Assembly: GCA_038127595.1 (NCBI GenBank)
Contig: JAYPIC010000036.1
Span: 3,988-16,957, forward strand
Reading direction: 5' to 3'
From: a bacterium
Lineage (GTDB): Bacteria > Fidelibacterota > Marinisomatia > Marinisomatales > UBA1611
Length of the DNA: 12,970 nucleotides
Within the stretch, counting starts at the first letter, position 1, and each line of letters begins with the position of its first letter. Both the position numbers and the translations under genes were made by a program. Under the pieces are notes generated by a model. The model ran no database searches and was not told the DNA's origin. It was given only the letters and a program-made list of their open reading frames with translations. Shown one piece after another: positions 1,792 to 11,368 of this stretch.

Positions 1792-1879
1792 ATGAATTGT
1801 TGGGTAGAAAACGTAATTTAAATTTTTCTTAATTATCATTGAATGGTTTGGCATGGTTAAGATATTTTAACTTAAGGAT

Positions 1880-3910
1880 TTGAAAATAATGATAAATTTT
1901 AATTTTTTAATATTAATGCTAATGCTTTTTTCATCATGCATTAAAACAGAGGAAAAAATAATGTTAAGATCTGGAATTGACTTTAGTAGAGTAGATTCAA
2001 CTGTAAGGCCTCAAGATGATTTTTACAGGCATGTTAATGGAACGTGGCTTAAGGAATTTGAGCTGCCAAAGGATAAATCTCGCTATGCTACATTTACAGT
2101 GCTTAGAGAAAAGGCGCGCAAAGATGTCAAAAAGATTATAGAAGAAGCATCCAAAACAAATTCTCCTGGTGGATCTGACAATCAAAAAATTGGCGATCTT
2201 TACCAGAGTTATATGGATACATTAACATTAGAAGAAACTGGCATACAAAGCATTTTCCCAGAATTAGAAAAAATTGACAAAATAAGTGATATGAACGATC
2301 TTTCTGAATATTTTGCTTATGCAGACATTTATACTACTGCTCCATTTGGGATTTATGTTTACATTGATAAAAAAAATCCCTCTCAGCATATTACTTATTT
2401 ATCACAGAGTGGTTTAGGGCTTCCAAACAGAGGTTATTATTTTGATGAAGATGCTAAAAGTAAAAACATCCGCAAAGAATATGTAATCCACATTGAAAAA
2501 ATATTCCGATTAGCAAAAATTAAAGATGCTAAAAAGAATGCTGATAGAGTTTTCCAAATAGAAATGGGAATTGCAAGACATCACTGGAAAAAAGAAAAAA
2601 ACAGAGATCCAGAACTAACCTATAATTTGATTTCTTACAATGATTTAAAAAATCAAATTTCTGGTTTTGATTGGGATAAATGGTTTCACACTACTATGAT
2701 GAAAAAATTTGATAAAATAGTTTTAAATCAATCAGACTATCTTCAAAACATAAGTAGTATAATGACTGGAACTTCTTTATCAGATTGGAAAATTTATTTT
2801 AAATGGGCTTTATTAAATAGAAATGCGAGTTTTTTAAATAGCGAATTTGAAAGACAAAATTTCTATTTTTACAGAACAGTCCTTAGTGGCGTTGAAGAAA
2901 TGGAGCCTAGATGGAAGCGAGGTGTTAGTGTTGTAAGTGGTAGGCTAGGAGAGATCATTGGTAAAGTATATGTTGAAAAACATTTTGATCAAAAGGCAAA
3001 GAATAGAATGTTGGAGCTGGTAGAAAATTTAAGAGAAGCTTACAGGATATCAATAGAGGAACTTGATTGGATGGGTGACTCTACAAAAGTTCAGGCTCAA
3101 GAAAAATTAAAAAAGTTTAGACCTAAAGTTGGCTTTCCAAACGAATGGAAAGATTATAGTAACCTAGTTATAAAAAAGGACGATTTAATAGGAAACATAA
3201 AAAACTCTACATTAGATCGAACAATTAAAAATCGAGAAAAATTAGGCAAACCAATAGACCGGGAAGAGTGGGGTATGACCCCTCAAACTGTTAACGCGTA
3301 TTATAGTCCCTTATTAAATGAAATTGTTTTCCCAGCTGGTATACTCCAGCCTCCATTTTTTAACATGGAAGCAGACGATGCAGTTAATTATGGAGCAATT
3401 GGAGCGGTTATAGGACATGAAATGGGCCATGGTTTTGATGATAAAGGTTCAAAATATGATGGAAATGGTGAACTTAGAAATTGGTGGACAGAATCAGATA
3501 GAAAGCAATTTGAAGAAAGAACAAAGAAATTAATAGATCAATATAATGGATACACAGTTGTCGATGGTACACCTGTAAATGGCGAATTCACGCAAGGTGA
3601 AAATATTGGCGATTTGGCTGGTATAGTGATTGCATATAAAGCATATCAATTATCAAAGAAAGGCAGCCAAGCGCCTATTATTGATGGTTTAACTGGAGAT
3701 CAAAGATTCTTTTTTGGGTGGGCAACTATATGGGGGTCAAAATCAACAGATGAACAATTAATAAGGCAAATAAAAACAGACCCACACTCTCCTGGCGAGT
3801 TTAGAGCAAATGGACCCTTAGTAAGTATGCCTGAATTTGTAAATTTATACAATATAAAACCTGGTGATGGAATGTATATTGACCCAAATGATAGAGTTAA
3901 AATTTGGTAA
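1880..3910 (+). CDS. M13 family zinc metalloendopeptidase (neprilysin/PepO-like), probable lipoprotein
   Basis: N-terminal VRPQDDFYRHVNGTW; VNAYY; IVFPAGILQPPFF; zinc motif IGHEMGHGFDD (HExxH); GENIGD (third zinc ligand, ExxxD); TDPHSP; C-terminal RVKIW. Hydrophobic leader ending in LFSS-C. Start is either TTG 1880 or ATG 1889; AAGGA at 1874-1878 is better spaced for 1889. Confidence 0.95.
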   Translation: MKIMINFNFLILMLMLFSSCIKTEEKIMLRSGIDFSRVDSTVRPQDDFYRHVNGTWLKEFELPKDKSRYATFTVLREKARKDVKKIIEEASKTNSPGGSDNQKIGDLYQSYMDTLTLEETGIQSIFPELEKIDKISDMNDLSEYFAYADIYTTAPFGIYVYIDKKNPSQHITYLSQSGLGLPNRGYYFDEDAKSKNIRKEYVIHIEKIFRLAKIKDAKKNADRVFQIEMGIARHHWKKEKNRDPELTYNLISYNDLKNQISGFDWDKWFHTTMMKKFDKIVLNQSDYLQNISSIMTGTSLSDWKIYFKWALLNRNASFLNSEFERQNFYFYRTVLSGVEEMEPRWKRGVSVVSGRLGEIIGKVYVEKHFDQKAKNRMLELVENLREAYRISIEELDWMGDSTKVQAQEKLKKFRPKVGFPNEWKDYSNLVIKKDDLIGNIKNSTLDRTIKNREKLGKPIDREEWGMTPQTVNAYYSPLLNEIVFPAGILQPPFFNMEADDAVNYGAIGAVIGHEMGHGFDDKGSKYDGNGELRNWWTESDRKQFEERTKKLIDQYNGYTVVDGTPVNGEFTQGENIGDLAGIVIAYKAYQLSKKGSQAPIIDGLTGDQRFFFGWATIWGSKSTDEQLIRQIKTDPHSPGEFRANGPLVSMPEFVNLYNIKPGDGMYIDPNDRVKIW

Positions 3911-3945
3911 TTAAATAAGTACTTTTATATATACGCATCAAACTA

Positions 3946-3981
3946 TTGTAAATAATTTTTACAAGGTTATAACATTGTAAA
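3946..3981. promoter_or_regulatory. Overlapping inverted repeats, candidate operator upstream of the wHTH-coiled-coil gene
   Basis: TTTACAAGGTTATAACATTGTAAA (3958-3981) is a 24-bp palindrome with one mismatched pair. It overlaps TTGTAAA-N5-TTTACAA (3946-3964). Function is inferred. Confidence 0.5.
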
Positions 3982-4028
3982 CTCATTGTCTTCCTATATT
4001 TATATAGCTAAATTGATTTACAACAATT

Positions 4029-4050
4029 ATAGAGGAATTATCCTCTATTT
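4029..4050 (+). terminator. Hairpin ATAGAGGA-atta-TCCTCTAT; possible intrinsic terminator for the M13 peptidase gene, or a protein-binding site
   Basis: Perfect 8-bp stem (4029-4036/4041-4048) with a 4-nt loop, followed by only a short or interrupted T tract, about 120 nt after the peptidase stop. Confidence 0.35.
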
Positions 4051-4109
4051 ATAGGCTATTTATTTTAATGTTGTAAAAAATAATAAAAATAAAATACAAC
4101 AAAATAATA

Positions 4110-7100
4110 ATGAGTTTTGAAAACTTAATATCTAATCTTTCAGACCAAAAAGTCATTAAGGCAATTTCTAAGCCAATACCCAAAAAGATAATTTCATGTA
4201 TTGGAGAAGATTCTTTTACAGCCTCTGAAATTGCGGACAAGATATCTTTTCCAAAAGAGAAGATTTATTACCACATAAAAAAGTTGGTCGCATTTAAAAT
4301 ACTAACTGTTTCAGAAACAAATGAAATTAAAGGTATCATTCAAAAAAAATACAGATTAGCCGAATTTTCATCACCACTCAAAAAAGAAATTTTACATGAT
4401 GATGGATATGAAAATAATTTATACATAAACGAAAAATTAAAGACCAAAATTATTGAACCAGGAACTGCATCAAAATTTGAATATGTTAAGGCTATCGCTA
4501 ATAAAATGATTGGCAACAGCTCGGCTAGTGAAATTGTGATTCAAAAATATCAGACAAATTCTAAGATTAAAAAATTAAGCTCAGTTATTTTTAACACTCG
4601 TAAGGATATTAATTCAGTGAAGGAAAAGATTGAATCTATCATTGCCCAAATATCACTTTATAATGATTCAGATCAATTATATACGAATCAAAAAAGACTA
4701 ATTGAGGAGAATGAACAATTTTCAAAAAGAATAGATTCTTATAAAAAAGATATCGCATTATCTAATGATAAGATTTCTATTATAAAGAAAAATTACAATG
4801 ATGAAAAAATTAAACAGAATATTACAATAAAGGAATTGCTGACTAAAATTGAAAAGACTGAAAAAGAGCTTCTCATTCAATCAAATAAAAAAGATCAAAT
4901 AGAATCATACATAAAAAACATTTATGATGAGGATTCTATATTAAAAAATTATGAAAAGTTTAATTTTAAAAATGATCTGTCAGTTTTAAATATTAAGAAA
5001 AAGGATTTAAAAGAAGAAATCACAAATATTAAAAGCCAAATAACATTGAGAGATGAAAAAATAACTCAAATTCAAAAAGCGATAGAACTAATCGCTGCTC
5101 AAACTGTTTCCTATGACAATGATTTGAATAATCTTTTACATCAAACGAAACTATTTGGCCCATCTGCAGATAAGGTTTTAAATAACAATGAATTACTTGA
5201 AAAGAACTTAGAAAATGAATTACTAGATCTTAACAATAGAAAAAAAGAGATTGATGATAAATTGATTTCTCTAGATGAAAGTATAAGAAGTAACCAGAAA
5301 CAAATAAGTACTATAAGTAAATCAATTAAGCCTGATCACAAAGAGCTCAAAAGTCTAAGAGCTAAGCATGAAAAATTATTGAAAAAACAATCAATAATTA
5401 GCTCTGACATTGATTCAATAAATCAAAATAAAAAACAGTTAGTAAATGCACACAAGGATAAAATAGATGAAACCTTTGACTTATTGAAAGAAATTGAAAT
5501 CGTAATAAAAAAGAATGAAGCTTCAAAATTATCAGAACAATTAAAAACGCTTGCACAAAAAAAGAAAAGTCTAAATTTTAAAAAAGGCTTGCTTGAAAAG
5601 TCTATTAGCTCTTTACAAGAAGAATTATATCAAGACCAGTCTTTTGTTGAAAATTCTAAAACATTATTTCAAAAAGAATATAAAAAAGAGCTTTCAAAAT
5701 ACGATAGCATAAAGGGTAAAATTAAAAAAAGTGAAGATACAGTATTAGCAATAACGAGTGAAATTGAGGTTTTAAAAAGTCTGATAGATTTCCATAAAGC
5801 CGTCCTAGAATCCTTAAGGCTGTTTGAGAGTGACACATTTAAAATTAATTTTGATTCTAAAGCTATAGAAAAGAACAATCAGGACAGATCACTGGAAATA
5901 ATATTAGACGGTTATATTAAAACTTATAATTGGTCTGCTGCTCAATTAAAAAAAGCCAGCTCTAATTTTAATAAAAATAAGTTCATAAAAAACTTAGATG
6001 ATGATGATATTTTAAAAGAATCAAAAATAGTGATCGATATATCAAGTTCACTACTTTCAATTCCCCAAAAACTTGTAGAATTAAATTTAAAATTAATTGA
6101 GACTAGAAAAAGCTCAATATCTTATTTAAAAAAACAAAATATTTTTCAATCATTTAAAGAAGAAATAAAGACTTTAAATAAAAAGAAAAGTGATTTAAAG
6201 AAAAATGAAAGGCAATTAGTATACAAAATTAGATCATGCGAAAAATCAATAAAAGTTTTAAACAAAGAAAAATTAAAAAATGAGGAATTATTAGAAAATA
6301 TTCAGACATCAATTTCTAAGCTAAAAGAAAAATCTAAATTATTAAAAAATAATAAGATCGATTACGATTTTAAACATGTTGATGAAATTAAAAACATAGA
6401 TAAAACAATAATTAATGTAGAAGCAGCAAATGAAGTATTAATAGAAAGCTTAAAAGAGCAGAAGGTAATAAATCAGAAAAGAGAAAAAAAATTAAAGATT
6501 TTTGAAAAATTGATTCATAGTATCGAAAAAGAAAGCGATAAAATTGATTCTGTTAATCATAAAATAAAATTAATTGAATTTGAAGATAAGAATATTAGTG
6601 AGCAAAAAAGTGCAGCGATTCAGAAAATAAGACAAGATATAGATAATTATGAAAGTTCGATAATTAAAAAGAAGTCATGGATTAGTAGTTCACGTTTTGA
6701 GGAAAATCAAATTCTTGGAGAAATCAGATTATGGAAAAAAGAATTAAATAGGTTGAATGCAGAGAAAAAATTAATAAACAATGAAATTGAAAAATCACAG
6801 CAAGTTACGATTCAAAAAGAGGAAGACGCGACATCTTGCAGAGACCAAGTAATAAATAAAATAAGAAATGAAATGGATAAAGAATATGATCAAGAAATAA
6901 TAAAGCAAAAAAAACTAAAGAAAATTTATTTAGATAATAGATCAAAAATACTTGATGAAGAAAATAAGATCATAACTGTCATTAAAATGAAAGAGAAAAA
7001 CTTACTTGATCTACAGAAAAAAATATCCAAAGTGGTAGAGAAAATTCAAAAATTCAAATTAACTAAAAAAAGAGAATTAGATAAATTTGAAAGACAGATA

Positions 7101-9863
7101 AATCAATATAAGGTATCAAAAGAAAAAATATCTTCTCGTCAAATCACCTTTAATCAACAATTGAATGTAGAATTATCCTTGTGTAAAGATGTTGAAGTCA
7201 AACTAAAGGATAAAATACTTGAGGCTGCCTCCGAAGTAAAAGCTATAGAGGATAAAATAAGTTTTAAGTCTGGGAGTACATATGCAACTTTCATGAAACA
7301 AACTATAGATATAGATGAAAGCCAAGCCAGCGTTTTAGTTAGTGATTCTATTTTAAATCATCAAAATTCTATTTCTCTCATTAAGAAAGATTTACGGGTT
7401 GAAAAACAAGAATTATCAAAAAAAATATTGAATCATAAAAAAGATATAAAAAAAATAAGATCAAAAATATCTTTAGCAAAAAAAGATATATTTACATTGA
7501 ATAAAAAAATTAGTGCTACCGAAAAAAGTCAAAGAAAGTTTAATCTGCCATTAAGTAAACTCATTCAATCACAGGAACTACTGGTCAAGGAGAAAGACCT
7601 TGCTGAGAAATCGTTCATTAGTCTACAAGTAAAGGAACAAGAAAATTTAGATGCTCTAGTTCAAAAAAGAACTGCCTTGGAGGACGAGTATAATAAGAAT
7701 GCTAATAAATTAGATAAAATTTATAAGGCAAAATTGAACGAGTTGAAAAATAGAATTAAAAACCAAGAAGATTTAAGATTAATGAAAATAAATCAGAACT
7801 CTAGAAATTTGAAAAAGGTTCTTGAAAAAACAGATCAAAGAATGAATAGAATCGATCAGCTTATTGCAACCGGTGAGGAAGTAATAAGAGAATCTTATTT
7901 AGCTATTGATGAAATAACTAAAAAAAGGAGTCAATTGGGTTCTGCAATTAAAGTTTATGATAAAAAGATATTCATGCTTGATAACAAGTTAGAAAAGACA
8001 AAATATGGATTAAAGATGAAAATGGAATCCAATATTAAAAAGTTAGATAATTTGAAAAATCAAATCGAAAATTCTGAAACAAATAAACTAAATCTTGGCA
8101 AAGATAAAAATGTAATAGAGCTAGAATTAAAATCTTTTGATAATAAGTCTATAAATTTAGGAAGAGACTCTTCTCAAATAGAATTTGACATAAGTCAAAA
8201 TAAGAAAATGGTCGAAGATTTAAAACAAAGAAAAATCAAATTGAATAAAGATAAAAGTATAAATGATAATTATACAGAGCATTCAGAAAAAGAACTATAT
8301 GATAGCTTAAACAATTTAGAAAAGATGTTTGAAAATACAAGAGAGGATTACTCTGGTTTAATAAGTGAGCTTAATACTCTTGATAAAAATAAAGCTGTTT
8401 TAGAAAAAGACGCCAAAATGAGCAGGTTAATATTATCAAGTACAGAAAAAGAAATTTTAGAAAAACTTTCTGATTTTGATTCATTTAGTAAAAAATTACA
8501 ATCTGCAAGAAATAGTCATACTCAAAATTTTTCATTAACCAAAAAAATGTTGAAATCACTACAGAAAGAGTATCAATTTCTCTTTTCTAGTTCAAAAAAA
8601 ATAAAAGAAAATAAAAAACTAGTTTTATCTTACACAGACACATTAATTAATGATAAAAATAAAACTTCTGAGCTATATAACATTCGCTATAAAGAAGGTG
8701 AGAGTAGAGCTGAAACATTAAAAAAAATGAATGAAAACTTTCATATCCTAGAACGAGAGTCTGAACAAAAAAATCAACAATTTCATATTAAAAAAGATGT
8801 AAACGAAAATGAATTAAAAAATATATTGAAAGAGCTAGATGACAATGATAATAAGATTTTTGAACTAAAAACATTAAAGAAATCTGAAACTCATCAATCG
8901 AAAATTTATAAAGATCGAAAAAGTAGTTTAGTTAAAAAAATTGATACTTTAAATCGTGAGCATAAAAAAGATATTCCTGTCATAGATGACCTTTTATCAA
9001 AAAAAGAAAAAACATTATCAAATGTAGATTCAAATCTTGAAAGGTGTTCTAATCGTATTGACACCTTAGAGAGATCTTTGCTACCAAGAAAAAAAGAACT
9101 GGGAATGATCGAAGACCGTAATAAAAATGACCTTCTAGACCTAGAGGATCTTAAAATTGAAAAAAAGAATGTTGATTCAAAAATTAATAATAGTATTGGG
9201 GCAATACGGAAAATAAAAAAGACCATTAAGCATGATACAAAAAAAATTAATTCTGAAAAAATTAAGAATGAAAACTCTATTCAGAACTTAAAATTAAATC
9301 TAGAGCAGAATAACAAATCGGCAGAATCTTTGAGGAAAGATTTAGAAAATAGCATTCAAATTAAAGGTAGTTTAACTAATGAGTTAGAGAGTAAAATTAA
9401 AGAAAAAGATAAAATTAAAGCTAAAATAGGTACTGTGAAAAATCGTTTAGATTCTAGCAAGGATCTTAAAAAATTAATGATGGAGCATAAATCCTTGGAA
9501 AAAGAAGTGAAAAATATGAACCTAAAATTAAATCAGTTTCATGAAAATTTTTCAGCTCTTAGTGCTGGTCTAAACGAATTAAAACAAATTAATCAAGAAA
9601 ACATCGCTCCAATTGAGAAGAATATTTTGGATAAAGAATATGAAGTCTTGAAAGATATTGATGGTATGAAAGAAAATGAAAAAGCGATTAGGGATTATAC
9701 TTTAAGGATTAAACAAGCACCATCAAAACTTAAGAGCTTAGATATTCAATACAAGGATCAAAATAGAACAAAATTCAAATTAGAACTTAAACTTAAAGAA
9801 TCTATAAGAAGTTTAGAGATGTTAAAAAAACGTTCTGAAATGTTTGATTCTTCAATGATGTAA
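4110..9863 (+). CDS. Giant (1917 aa) coiled-coil protein with an N-terminal ArsR/HTH_20-like winged helix-turn-helix domain; function unknown
   Basis: 5.75-kb uninterrupted ORF. aa ~10-85 ([67 protein letters not shown]) follow the ArsR-like wHTH pattern (AL..P.R..IL......T..ELA.......VYYHL..L...GL......G..EKYY). The remainder is K/E/I/L/N-rich heptad-patterned helix with very few Pro/Gly. No TM segment, signal peptide, Walker A/B or ABC signature seen. Confidence 0.85.
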
Positions 9864-9873
9864 ATATAGTTTA

Positions 9874-10311
9874 ATGATGAACAAAGTAGAAATATTTACT
9901 GATGGAGCTTGTAAAGGTAACCCCGGGCCAGGAGGTTGGGGCGCCATACTGAGGTATGGTACAACTGAGAAAGAAATTTATGGTGCTAGCAAGAATACTA
10001 CTAATAATATCATGGAGTTAACAGCAGTTATAGAATCTTTAAAAAATTTAAATAAGCCTTGTGAGTTAATTATTACCACTGATTCAAAATATGTAAAAAA
10101 TGGAATAACTGAATGGATTCATAATTGGAAAAAAAATGGGTGGAGGACTGCTGCAAAAAAAGAAGTAAAAAATAAAGAGCTATGGATTGAACTAGACTCT
10201 CTTATTCAAATTCATTCAATTACTTGGGATTGGGTAAAAGGTCACTCAGGACATCCCGAGAATGAGCGAGCTGATTTGCTAGCAAACGTAGCAATAGAAG
10301 AATTAAAATAA
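9874..10311 (+). CDS. rnhA: Ribonuclease HI
   Basis: [16 protein letters not shown], TTNNx[40 protein letters not shown]. Catalytic D10, E48, D70, D134 and H124 fall at the E. coli RNase HI positions when counted from ATG 9874 (alternative ATG at 9877). Confidence 0.97.
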
Positions 10312-10336: not shown

Positions 10337-11368
10337 TTGCAATTAAGAAATTTATCTAACGTTTCCAATATTGACCTAAGGTCAGAAAATGAATTCAAAA
10401 AAGGTTCTATTCCTCAAAGTGTAAACATACCAATTTTAAATAATGATCAATTCAAAAAAGTCGGAATTGAGTACAAAAAAAATGGAAGTGATGCTGCTAT
10501 AGCTTTAGGGCATTCATTGGTTAAAGGATCATTAAAGGGAAATTTGATCCAACATTGGACTGAGCATTTGAAAAAAAACCCAGAATGTTTATTGTATTGT
10601 TTTCGCGGGGGTATGAGATCTGAAATAGCAGTTAAGTGGCTAAGCGAGTGCGGTGTAAAAGTAAACAGATTAAAGGGAGGGTATAAAAATTTCAGAAATT
10701 GGGTGATTTCACAACATCTAGATATAGAAAATTATATTAAAGATTGGATAGTAATTGGTGGATTGACAGGTTCAGGAAAAACAGATTTTCTGCGTTCTTT
10801 TAAAGAGTCAATAGATCTAGAGCGAATTGCTAATCATAGAGGATCTGCTTTTGGTATTAGGGATGGTGGACAGCCTACTCAATCAAATTTTGAAAATATA
10901 TTAACTCTAGATTATCTGAATCACAAATATGAGAAATTGATTCTTGAAGATGAAAGTAGAACAATAGGCAGAGCTGGCTTACCTGGGTTCTGGTATCAAA
11001 AGATGCAAAGTTCAAAGCTTATAATTTTGGAGGTTGATGATGATAAAAGAGCTGAAAATATATATTATGAATATGTATATGATGAATTAAATAATGGGGT
11101 AAACGAAGATATTCTACTAGAAAAATATTTAGGTTCATTGAATAATATCAAAAGAAGATTAGGGAATGTAGTTTATAATAATATTAAAGATTTAATGAAA
11201 ATTGCATTCCATCAAAATGAAAAAGAAATTCATAAGGAATGGATTTTGACTTTACTAACTAGCTATTATGATAAAATGTATAGTTATAAACTAGATATGC
11301 GAAAAGATTTCATTGTTCACAAAGGGGAGATAGAGTCATGCAGGGGTTATATTAATGCTATGCTCTAG
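10337..11368 (+). CDS. mnmH: tRNA 2-selenouridine(34) synthase SelU/MnmH (YbbB)
   Basis: N-terminal rhodanese domain (IDLRSENEF..GSIP..VNIPIL; YCFRGGMRS; LKGGYK) followed by a P-loop domain (GGLTGSGKT), DLERIANHRGSAFG, QPTQSNFEN, EDESRTIG, KRRLG, YYDKMY. TTG start; an in-frame TAA at 10304-10306 limits any upstream extension. Confidence 0.93.
   Translation: MQLRNLSNVSNIDLRSENEFKKGSIPQSVNIPILNNDQFKKVGIEYKKNGSDAAIALGHSLVKGSLKGNLIQHWTEHLKKNPECLLYCFRGGMRSEIAVKWLSECGVKVNRLKGGYKNFRNWVISQHLDIENYIKDWIVIGGLTGSGKTDFLRSFKESIDLERIANHRGSAFGIRDGGQPTQSNFENILTLDYLNHKYEKLILEDESRTIGRAGLPGFWYQKMQSSKLIILEVDDDKRAENIYYEYVYDELNNGVNEDILLEKYLGSLNNIKRRLGNVVYNNIKDLMKIAFHQNEKEIHKEWILTLLTSYYDKMYSYKLDMRKDFIVHKGEIESCRGYINAML

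Follow-up and report, generated by a model that had tools for sequence, protein, structure and literature searches.

A giant winged-helix coiled-coil protein of marine Fidelibacterota as the probable free arm of a wHTH-PilM-PilN fusion

The window considered here is a stretch of 12,970 nucleotides (assembly GCA_038127595.1, contig JAYPIC010000036.1; G000 in our numbering of genomes, G, contigs, C, and loci, L) from a member of the order Marinisomatales, in the marine Marinimicrobia (SAR406), now named Fidelibacterota (PMC11652737). An M13 peptidase gene is followed in it by a giant open reading frame (ORF) of 1917 amino acids (aa), rnhA and mnmH, and the features of the locus are collected in Table 1. 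The giant product joins a winged helix-turn-helix (wHTH) head to a very long coil. The first-pass annotation of this DNA saw in it an undescribed non-SMC protein made of a wHTH and a giant coil, which was right, but missed its origin from a pilus-alignment protein, a fusion of wHTH, PilM and PilN. According to the sequence comparisons reported below, the window protein is almost certainly the excised arm of such a Marinimicrobia fusion, two deletions having spared the head and the whole insert. A literature search, with subscription papers and supplements outside its scope, found no description of either the armed fusion or the free arm.

The ORF itself is real, as intact orthologues of 1917-1928 aa occur at 40-98% identity, and two further public DNA runs yield contigs without gaps that cover positions 1864-8747 and 2027-6064 and bridge the junction of head and coil; an assembly chimera is thus ruled out. 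Motif searches of the window protein returned no Walker A, LSGG or CxxC match and no ELCVC metal-site motif (as named in the first-pass annotation), and its highest 19-residue hydropathy is 1.18, hence no transmembrane (TM) helix, in agreement with the first-pass annotation.

Table 1. Features of the giant-gene locus, in window coordinates
Feature	Position	Strand	Basis or remark
Candidate operator, two overlapping TTACAAYRTTGTAA copies	3959-3972 (2 mismatches), 3967-3980 (1 mismatch)	.	upstream alignments
Second candidate operator copy	4063-4076	.	2 mismatches, 47 nt before start codon
Giant gene	4110-9863	+	ORF of 1917 aa, wHTH-hairpin-coil protein, 224 kDa, pI 9.4
ArsR-like (HTH_20) winged helix, aa ~10-85	4137-4364	+	Pfam HTH_20; putative recognition segment conserved
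Short linker, aa 86-132	4365-4505	+	putative site of in-frame loss of ~465 aa (Arg-rich linker and PilM body)
Outgoing arm, aa 133-1053	4506-7268	+	parent collinearity, insert alignments, AlphaFold2
Helical 'knuckle', aa 547-665, in outgoing arm	5748-6104	+	profile match
Predicted tip, aa 1054-1069	7269-7316	+	helix break with short helix; AlphaFold2
Returning arm, aa 1070-1917	7317-9860	+	stops ~10 aa before parent re-enters PilM
Putative second deletion point	9861-9873	+	last PilM helix, PilN, pilO, pilP and secretin gene gone
rnhA	9874-10311	+	10 nt past giant gene
mnmH	10337-11368	+	25 nt past rnhA

Relatives in one order of the phylum encode wHTH-PilM-PilN fusions heading operons with a weak PilO match, a weak PilP/T2SSB-like match and a clear secretin gene; pilO follows in all 18 complete fusions among the metagenome loci, and in families f5, f8 and f9 the operon goes on with a receiver domain, PilB, PilC and pilins. 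A 17-row profile of the relatives' globular domain matches Myxococcus PilM (E 7e-9), then MreB and Thermus PilM, and for the AlphaFold2 (AF2) model of an armless 804-aa relative (predicted local distance difference test, pLDDT, 75) PilM chains occupy Foldseek ranks 1-10. The C-terminus of the parents holds an NLLP-type motif of the kind known from PilN, one TM helix and a PilN-like domain; a profile of the PilN region found nothing significant among PDB sequences. Among the 150 matches listed, 54 were scanned: an HTH at E<=0.001 was present only in the five closest, the remaining 49 being PilM-type proteins without HTH. At E<=1e-25, 57 of the 201 genomes of the order contain the PilM domain of the parent clade. 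Most parents carry the coil as an insert inside the PilM fold, at the junction of the PilM body with the last helix, where armless forms have about 10 residues and three armed classes have 1311-1347, 1799-1803 or 1939, with predicted rod lengths of 95, 125 and 145 nm, respectively. Since Tyr replaces the Asp of MreB at the phosphate-2 position, the PilM part of the parents may not bind ATP. Generally regarded as a compact adaptor, PilM bears here a DNA-binding head and an arm that resembles those of SMC and has a fixed length in each clade.

The coil of the window protein is collinear with a 2608-aa protein of the same genus (G006), at an offset of +460 to +475 in 11 of 17 segments, and its retained aa 133-1917 match the 1803-aa parent insert almost exactly; junction alignments place its start at the parent's point of exit from PilM and its end about 10 aa short of the point of return. 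The Arg-rich linker of armed parents is also lost from the window form. Family profiles of PilM and of PilN found nothing in window-type proteins, nor was a matching PilM body found in the six window-type genomes or the secretin class of 547-572 aa in G000, G001, G002, G003, G005 and G007 (64-96% complete in both searches). Gene order agrees: the parent locus of G006 (L046) reads fusion-pilO-pilP-secretin-rnhA-mnmH, an M13 peptidase gene precedes the full fusion in L107, which continues with pilOPQ, and in L109, and the arm is followed by rnhA-mnmH-sulP in all five window-type loci with downstream DNA. This synteny, in our view, settles the deletion origin. In a midpoint-rooted tree of the wHTH (83 columns, 47 rows, near-duplicates and fragments excluded) the window-type clade (100/99) joins the class-2 parents, those with 1800-aa inserts, at 97/87, with classes 1 and 3 outside. 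A search with a profile of the arm's apex among proteins of 703-2005 aa gave six matches, all window-type, the longer parents being outside this size range, and is weak evidence on the arm's origin. The occurrence of both forms in one genome, G012, was discounted, as the contig of L045 (G012:C95) is probably mis-binned, G012 having two mnmH copies. The series from armless fusion through armed fusion to free arm is one of the rare cases in which the origin of a large coiled-coil protein of bacteria can be traced.

Several other features vary among the parents. The linker between wHTH and PilM (aa ~165-225 of L046 and equivalents) has two to seven [DE]RR motifs in every armed parent, whereas armless and window-type forms have none; the motifs presumably recall RxxxR-type sites for cyclic di-GMP. 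Two Arg-rich linkers were scanned with Pfam and gave no match; an MshEN domain is present in the PilB of L067. In family f8 (L075 on G176:C7, L047/L143 on G031:C12) the fusion is insert-free and bears a helical, Ala/Glu-rich N-terminal extension of ~1650 aa unrelated to the arm, which makes it the second giant appendage of this protein, independent of the first, and in both genomes a gene for a ParA-like ATPase lies directly upstream. In L065 (11871-16598) and most class-1 loci a PKD-like protein of ~382 aa and an exported protein of >1200 aa, possibly secreted cargo, replace pilB-pilC-pilins. Three secretin length classes recur across the family. In the ESM Atlas an armless relative fell in one HTH-bearing, mostly Fidelibacterota cluster, possibly its own, and the window protein had no usable match.

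The shape of the arm follows from its insertion: both ends of the insert return to one PilM domain, and it must therefore fold back. Insertion topology together with AF2 argues against an end-to-end tether of 260 nm and for an antiparallel rod about 125 nm long whose base carries the head, and we regard such an intramolecular hairpin, predicted to comprise ~850 residue pairs at a rise of 0.15 nm per residue, as very probable. Of the two rod lengths proposed in the first-pass annotation, the folded-back one (~130 nm) fits and the extended one (~260 nm) finds no support, the hairpin being predicted to turn near aa 1066. The AF2 model of aa 874-1274 (32 rows; pLDDT 92, predicted template modelling score 0.46) consists of a helix at 874-1053, a short helix and a helix at 1070-1273, the apex being a 16-residue turn, and its top Foldseek matches are antiparallel hairpins (arms of Rad50, Smc and MukB, and a chemoreceptor tail) whose matched ranges have their centre mostly at model residue ~193 (aa ~1066); the resemblance is one of shape and does not indicate kinship. 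A conserved tip motif sits near the middle of the insert and is 6 aa shorter in the window sub-lineage. For the base of the rod, the predicted pairing of aa 1730-1917 with aa 133-331 scored 0.50 against 0.00 for the best control (78% contact agreement, pLDDT >=76), a weak support given that in the calibration 18 of 157 solved pairs passed at <=0.60, as did both mismatches that passed at all (2/215). Strict symmetry of the two arms was rejected, the correlation of 0.99 reflecting two length classes only and the 1939-aa class breaking it.

The coil foreseen in the first reading of the protein was borne out, but not its near continuity, since it contains a conserved helical excursion at aa ~547-665 and a conserved turn at aa ~1054-1069. 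The summed hydrophobic period has its maximum at 3.54 from aa 141 onward (3.50 in the arms of the genome's SMC-like protein), 13 of 25 coil windows of 70 aa beat shuffles at p<=0.05, and the rod contains 18% K and 0.7% P. The knuckle profile matches every arm-bearing relative scored; Pfam gave sub-threshold matches only on knuckle and tip, and self-BLAST of the window protein revealed no internal tandem repeats.

The head, already recognized as an ArsR-like winged helix, passes Pfam HTH_20 when aa 1-97 are scored alone (28.1 bits vs. a cut-off of 27, E 2e-6), while the full-length protein reaches 22.6 bits, under the cut-off. Head searches gave matches in 39 of 401 genomes of the phylum, all within the order of the window and most in giant ORFs, and the putative recognition segment is kept across fused, short and stand-alone relatives. 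Among the latter, four stand-alone proteins of 193 aa (L079-L082) are close kin of the head, and their lineage is a possible source of it; L079-L081 carry the TTACAAYRTTGTAA palindrome upstream and are oriented divergently from a conserved ~750-aa gene.

The same palindrome constitutes a conserved putative operator upstream of the family's loci. Within two mismatches it occurs in 69 of 82 upstream regions, counting loci with at least 230 nt upstream, and within one in 43, as compared to 2.6% in shuffles, a count that is partly circular, the consensus being derived from the same regions, and that includes many close kin. It also lies upstream of armless fusions and of the 193-aa relatives sharing the recognition segment. 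In the 2.0-Mb genome the only copy with at most one mismatch is that at window position 3967, and three of the 14 intergenic copies with at most two precede the giant gene; across 151 genomes no consistent excess over the reversed control was observed. A single near-perfect copy, placed before the giant gene, argues for autorepression and against tethering of the parS/ram type. The head would then probably be an autorepressor that binds palindromes in its own promoter and limits the synthesis of a 224-kDa protein. Between the operator clusters, a 20-bp inverted repeat (4029-4048) is terminator-like on the minus strand.

Substitution ratios indicate that the arm is under purifying selection after the loss of the pilus parts. 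The ratio of nonsynonymous to synonymous substitution rates (dN/dS, Nei-Gojobori) of the giant gene against G003 is 0.19 (0.15-0.24), with 0.07-0.26 over its seven regions; neighbour genes give 0.07-0.16 (mnmH 0.16, sulP 0.14) and parent inserts 0.135-0.154, and complete window-type proteins are held at 1917-1928 aa down to 40% identity. The function of the arm is therefore separable from pilus assembly. As to what this function may be, the head would dose a costly structural protein and the rod would do the work. In the parents each PilM-like subunit under the secretin machine would bear the rod as a cytoplasmic strut of fixed length; in the window lineage the rod would be a soluble strut or scaffold, docking on itself or on another envelope machine via tip and knuckle, and unbound copies would feed back on the promoter. 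That the selected function is the rod as strut or scaffold, first on the pilus/secretin base and now free, is the weakest inferred step, and we consider it about evenly balanced. The scaffold or filament proposed in the first-pass annotation stays, in this respect, the leading idea, whereas the tether proposed with it was weakened.

A number of observations weigh against the interpretation as a whole. The lengths of the two arms are loosely coupled, the 1939-aa class having ~123 of its ~136 extra residues in the returning arm and three parents showing uncompensated deletions of ~30 aa in the outgoing one, and no signal of charge complementarity between the arms was detected. The palindrome, besides the circularity and kinship behind its count, could be owned by another regulator, and the RNA-library contigs that contain pieces of the giant gene are of a kind that cannot show expression. 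The copy in G007 has two +1 insertions with respect to a 96%-identical relative (assembly error or decay), L104 stops early at 701 aa, and the window lineage shows a drifted tip motif; with a dN/dS of 0.19-0.22, slightly above that of the parent inserts, these last points are what a decaying relic, retained since its promoter drives rnhA-mnmH, would display. Such a relic is nonetheless very unlikely, as dN/dS is far under 1 in all seven regions, and a 5.7-kb open frame with the exact insert length is kept to 40% identity in genomes of ~2 Mb or less.

The strut or scaffold has also to be weighed against two readings that give the head the leading role. The rod could be a signalling hairpin that relays tip binding or strain to the wHTH. 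In that case the parent would be a one-component, membrane-bound reporter of pilus assembly, and the window protein its soluble counterpart, regulating the operon made up of its own gene, rnhA and mnmH. The parents have indeed the anatomy of ToxR/CadC-type TM regulators (wHTH, one TM helix and periplasmic domain), from which the window protein differs in having no TM segment, the head sits at the hairpin base, the operator is conserved, and the best matches by fold include the chemoreceptor tail (Z 14.1, rmsd 11). Such a Z is, however, common for long helices, no regulon is visible beyond the few intergenic sites, and armless relatives share head and operator, so that regulation does not need the rod; we hold this sensor-regulator to be unlikely. 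A DNA tether or nucleoid organiser, whose head would hold DNA and whose basic rod would reach across to the pole or to further DNA, appears quite unlikely. The net charge of the rod, +3.2 to +4.6 per 100 aa in window-type proteins vs. -1.4 to +3.7 in parents, speaks for it but partly tracks low GC; further points in its favour are that the parent could tie one locus to the pilus base and that, in G031 and G176, the fusion follows the ParA-like gene. The head, on the other hand, lies at the base of the hairpin beside the C-terminus, with no membrane anchor, there is no site array, the candidate site being essentially single-copy and in its own promoter, and an SMC-like ORF is present elsewhere in the genome (C19:18124-21645, by inspection). 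The place of the head, the lack of an anchor and the nearly single-copy site also count against the chromosome tether, nucleoid organiser and end-to-end ruler of the first-pass annotation. More speculatively, the 95-145-nm strut may have grown in Marinimicrobia from the PilM subunit of a secretin machine, as a cytoplasmic crown of fixed length spacing or anchoring that machine, and then become a self-regulated cytoskeletal element in one surface-ocean lineage, a scenario we find doubtful. If true, a cytoskeletal protein would have originated from a pilus subunit through intermediate stages that present-day genomes still show, and the parent would serve both in pilus assembly and as its own transcription factor.

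Comparison with known systems places the family close to PilM/PilN of the type IVa pilus alignment complex and to their fused form GspL/PulL (PDB 3jc8, 5eou, 2ych; PF11104, PF05137), with which the parents share the PilM fold, the PilN-like C-terminus, one TM helix and the pilO-pilP-secretin operon, adding a wHTH and an insert of 1310-1940 aa. The window protein belongs to them by descent but lacks PilM and PilN sequence, including the TM helix, and the operon. Like SMC, Rad50 and MukB, it is predicted to form a long antiparallel coil within one molecule, both ends of which meet at a single globular domain; the giant arm is ~2.5 times an SMC arm, has no ABC ATPase head, hinge or zinc hook, and arose from the actin-fold PilM. 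SMC identity was rejected, NCBIfam SMC models scoring 30.8 (TIGR02168, cut-off 567) and 18.9 bits (cut-off 729) in a protein without Walker A or LSGG motif. RacA of Bacillus combines an HTH and a coiled coil with no enzyme domain, binds many ram sites and docks on DivIVA, but is ~10 times smaller; here there are one site cluster and a fold-back rod, and the many centromere-like sites of such an anchor were not found, as far as the candidate palindrome is concerned. ArsR/SmtB regulators are alike in wHTH profile and in having a palindrome in their own promoter, here a candidate site shared by the 193-aa relatives, and differ from the window protein, which has no ELCVC motif and 1830 extra residues. 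The wHTH on a protein with another main job is shared with type Ia ParA/RepA, whose N-terminal wHTH represses its own operon (PMC4492784), autorepression being only proposed here; a Walker-A ATPase, ParB and a parS-like array are absent. The fusion of PilM with PilN is already known as PulL/GspL (PMC10191384), and the main text of a survey of transmembrane regulators contains no PilM, ArsR or coiled coils (PMC10269533). Automated pipelines would label such proteins, encoded in an abundant, mostly uncultured marine phylum, as SMC-like, ArsR or hypothetical.

Co-option of PilMNO by flagella has been reported (PMC10823254). A flagellar link was rejected for the present family: flagellin was absent from all five genomes searched, a FliG domain occurs in 142 of 201 genomes and its co-occurrence with the fusion is therefore uninformative, and in G031 and G274 a distance of 16-20 kb, occupied by metabolic genes, separates the motor cluster from the wHTH-PilMN operon, no such cluster being present in the 20-kb stretches read in G102 and G317. 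In the genome of the window, C17:4214-12167 holds a MotA/MotB/FliF/FliG-like cluster with a confirmed FliG domain. Two further sets of pilus type are retained in this genome: that on C44 is canonical, and the one on C30, whose PilB lies on C76, contains a PilMN fusion (regions C30:16619-21212, C44:293-12640, C65:95-7903 and C76:460-8026). One of the two has its own PilM-PilN fusion and ~12 pilin-like genes in a row.

Promoter scans of the locus gave chance-level output, and a terminator scan revealed no plus-strand match between the giant gene, rnhA and mnmH. These two genes are probably co-transcribed with the giant gene, and are probably neighbours inherited from the parent locus, outside the machine. 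At the other end of the window, positions 1-1791 encode a membrane protein of the LMF1 (lipase maturation factor) family, best known from eukaryotes.

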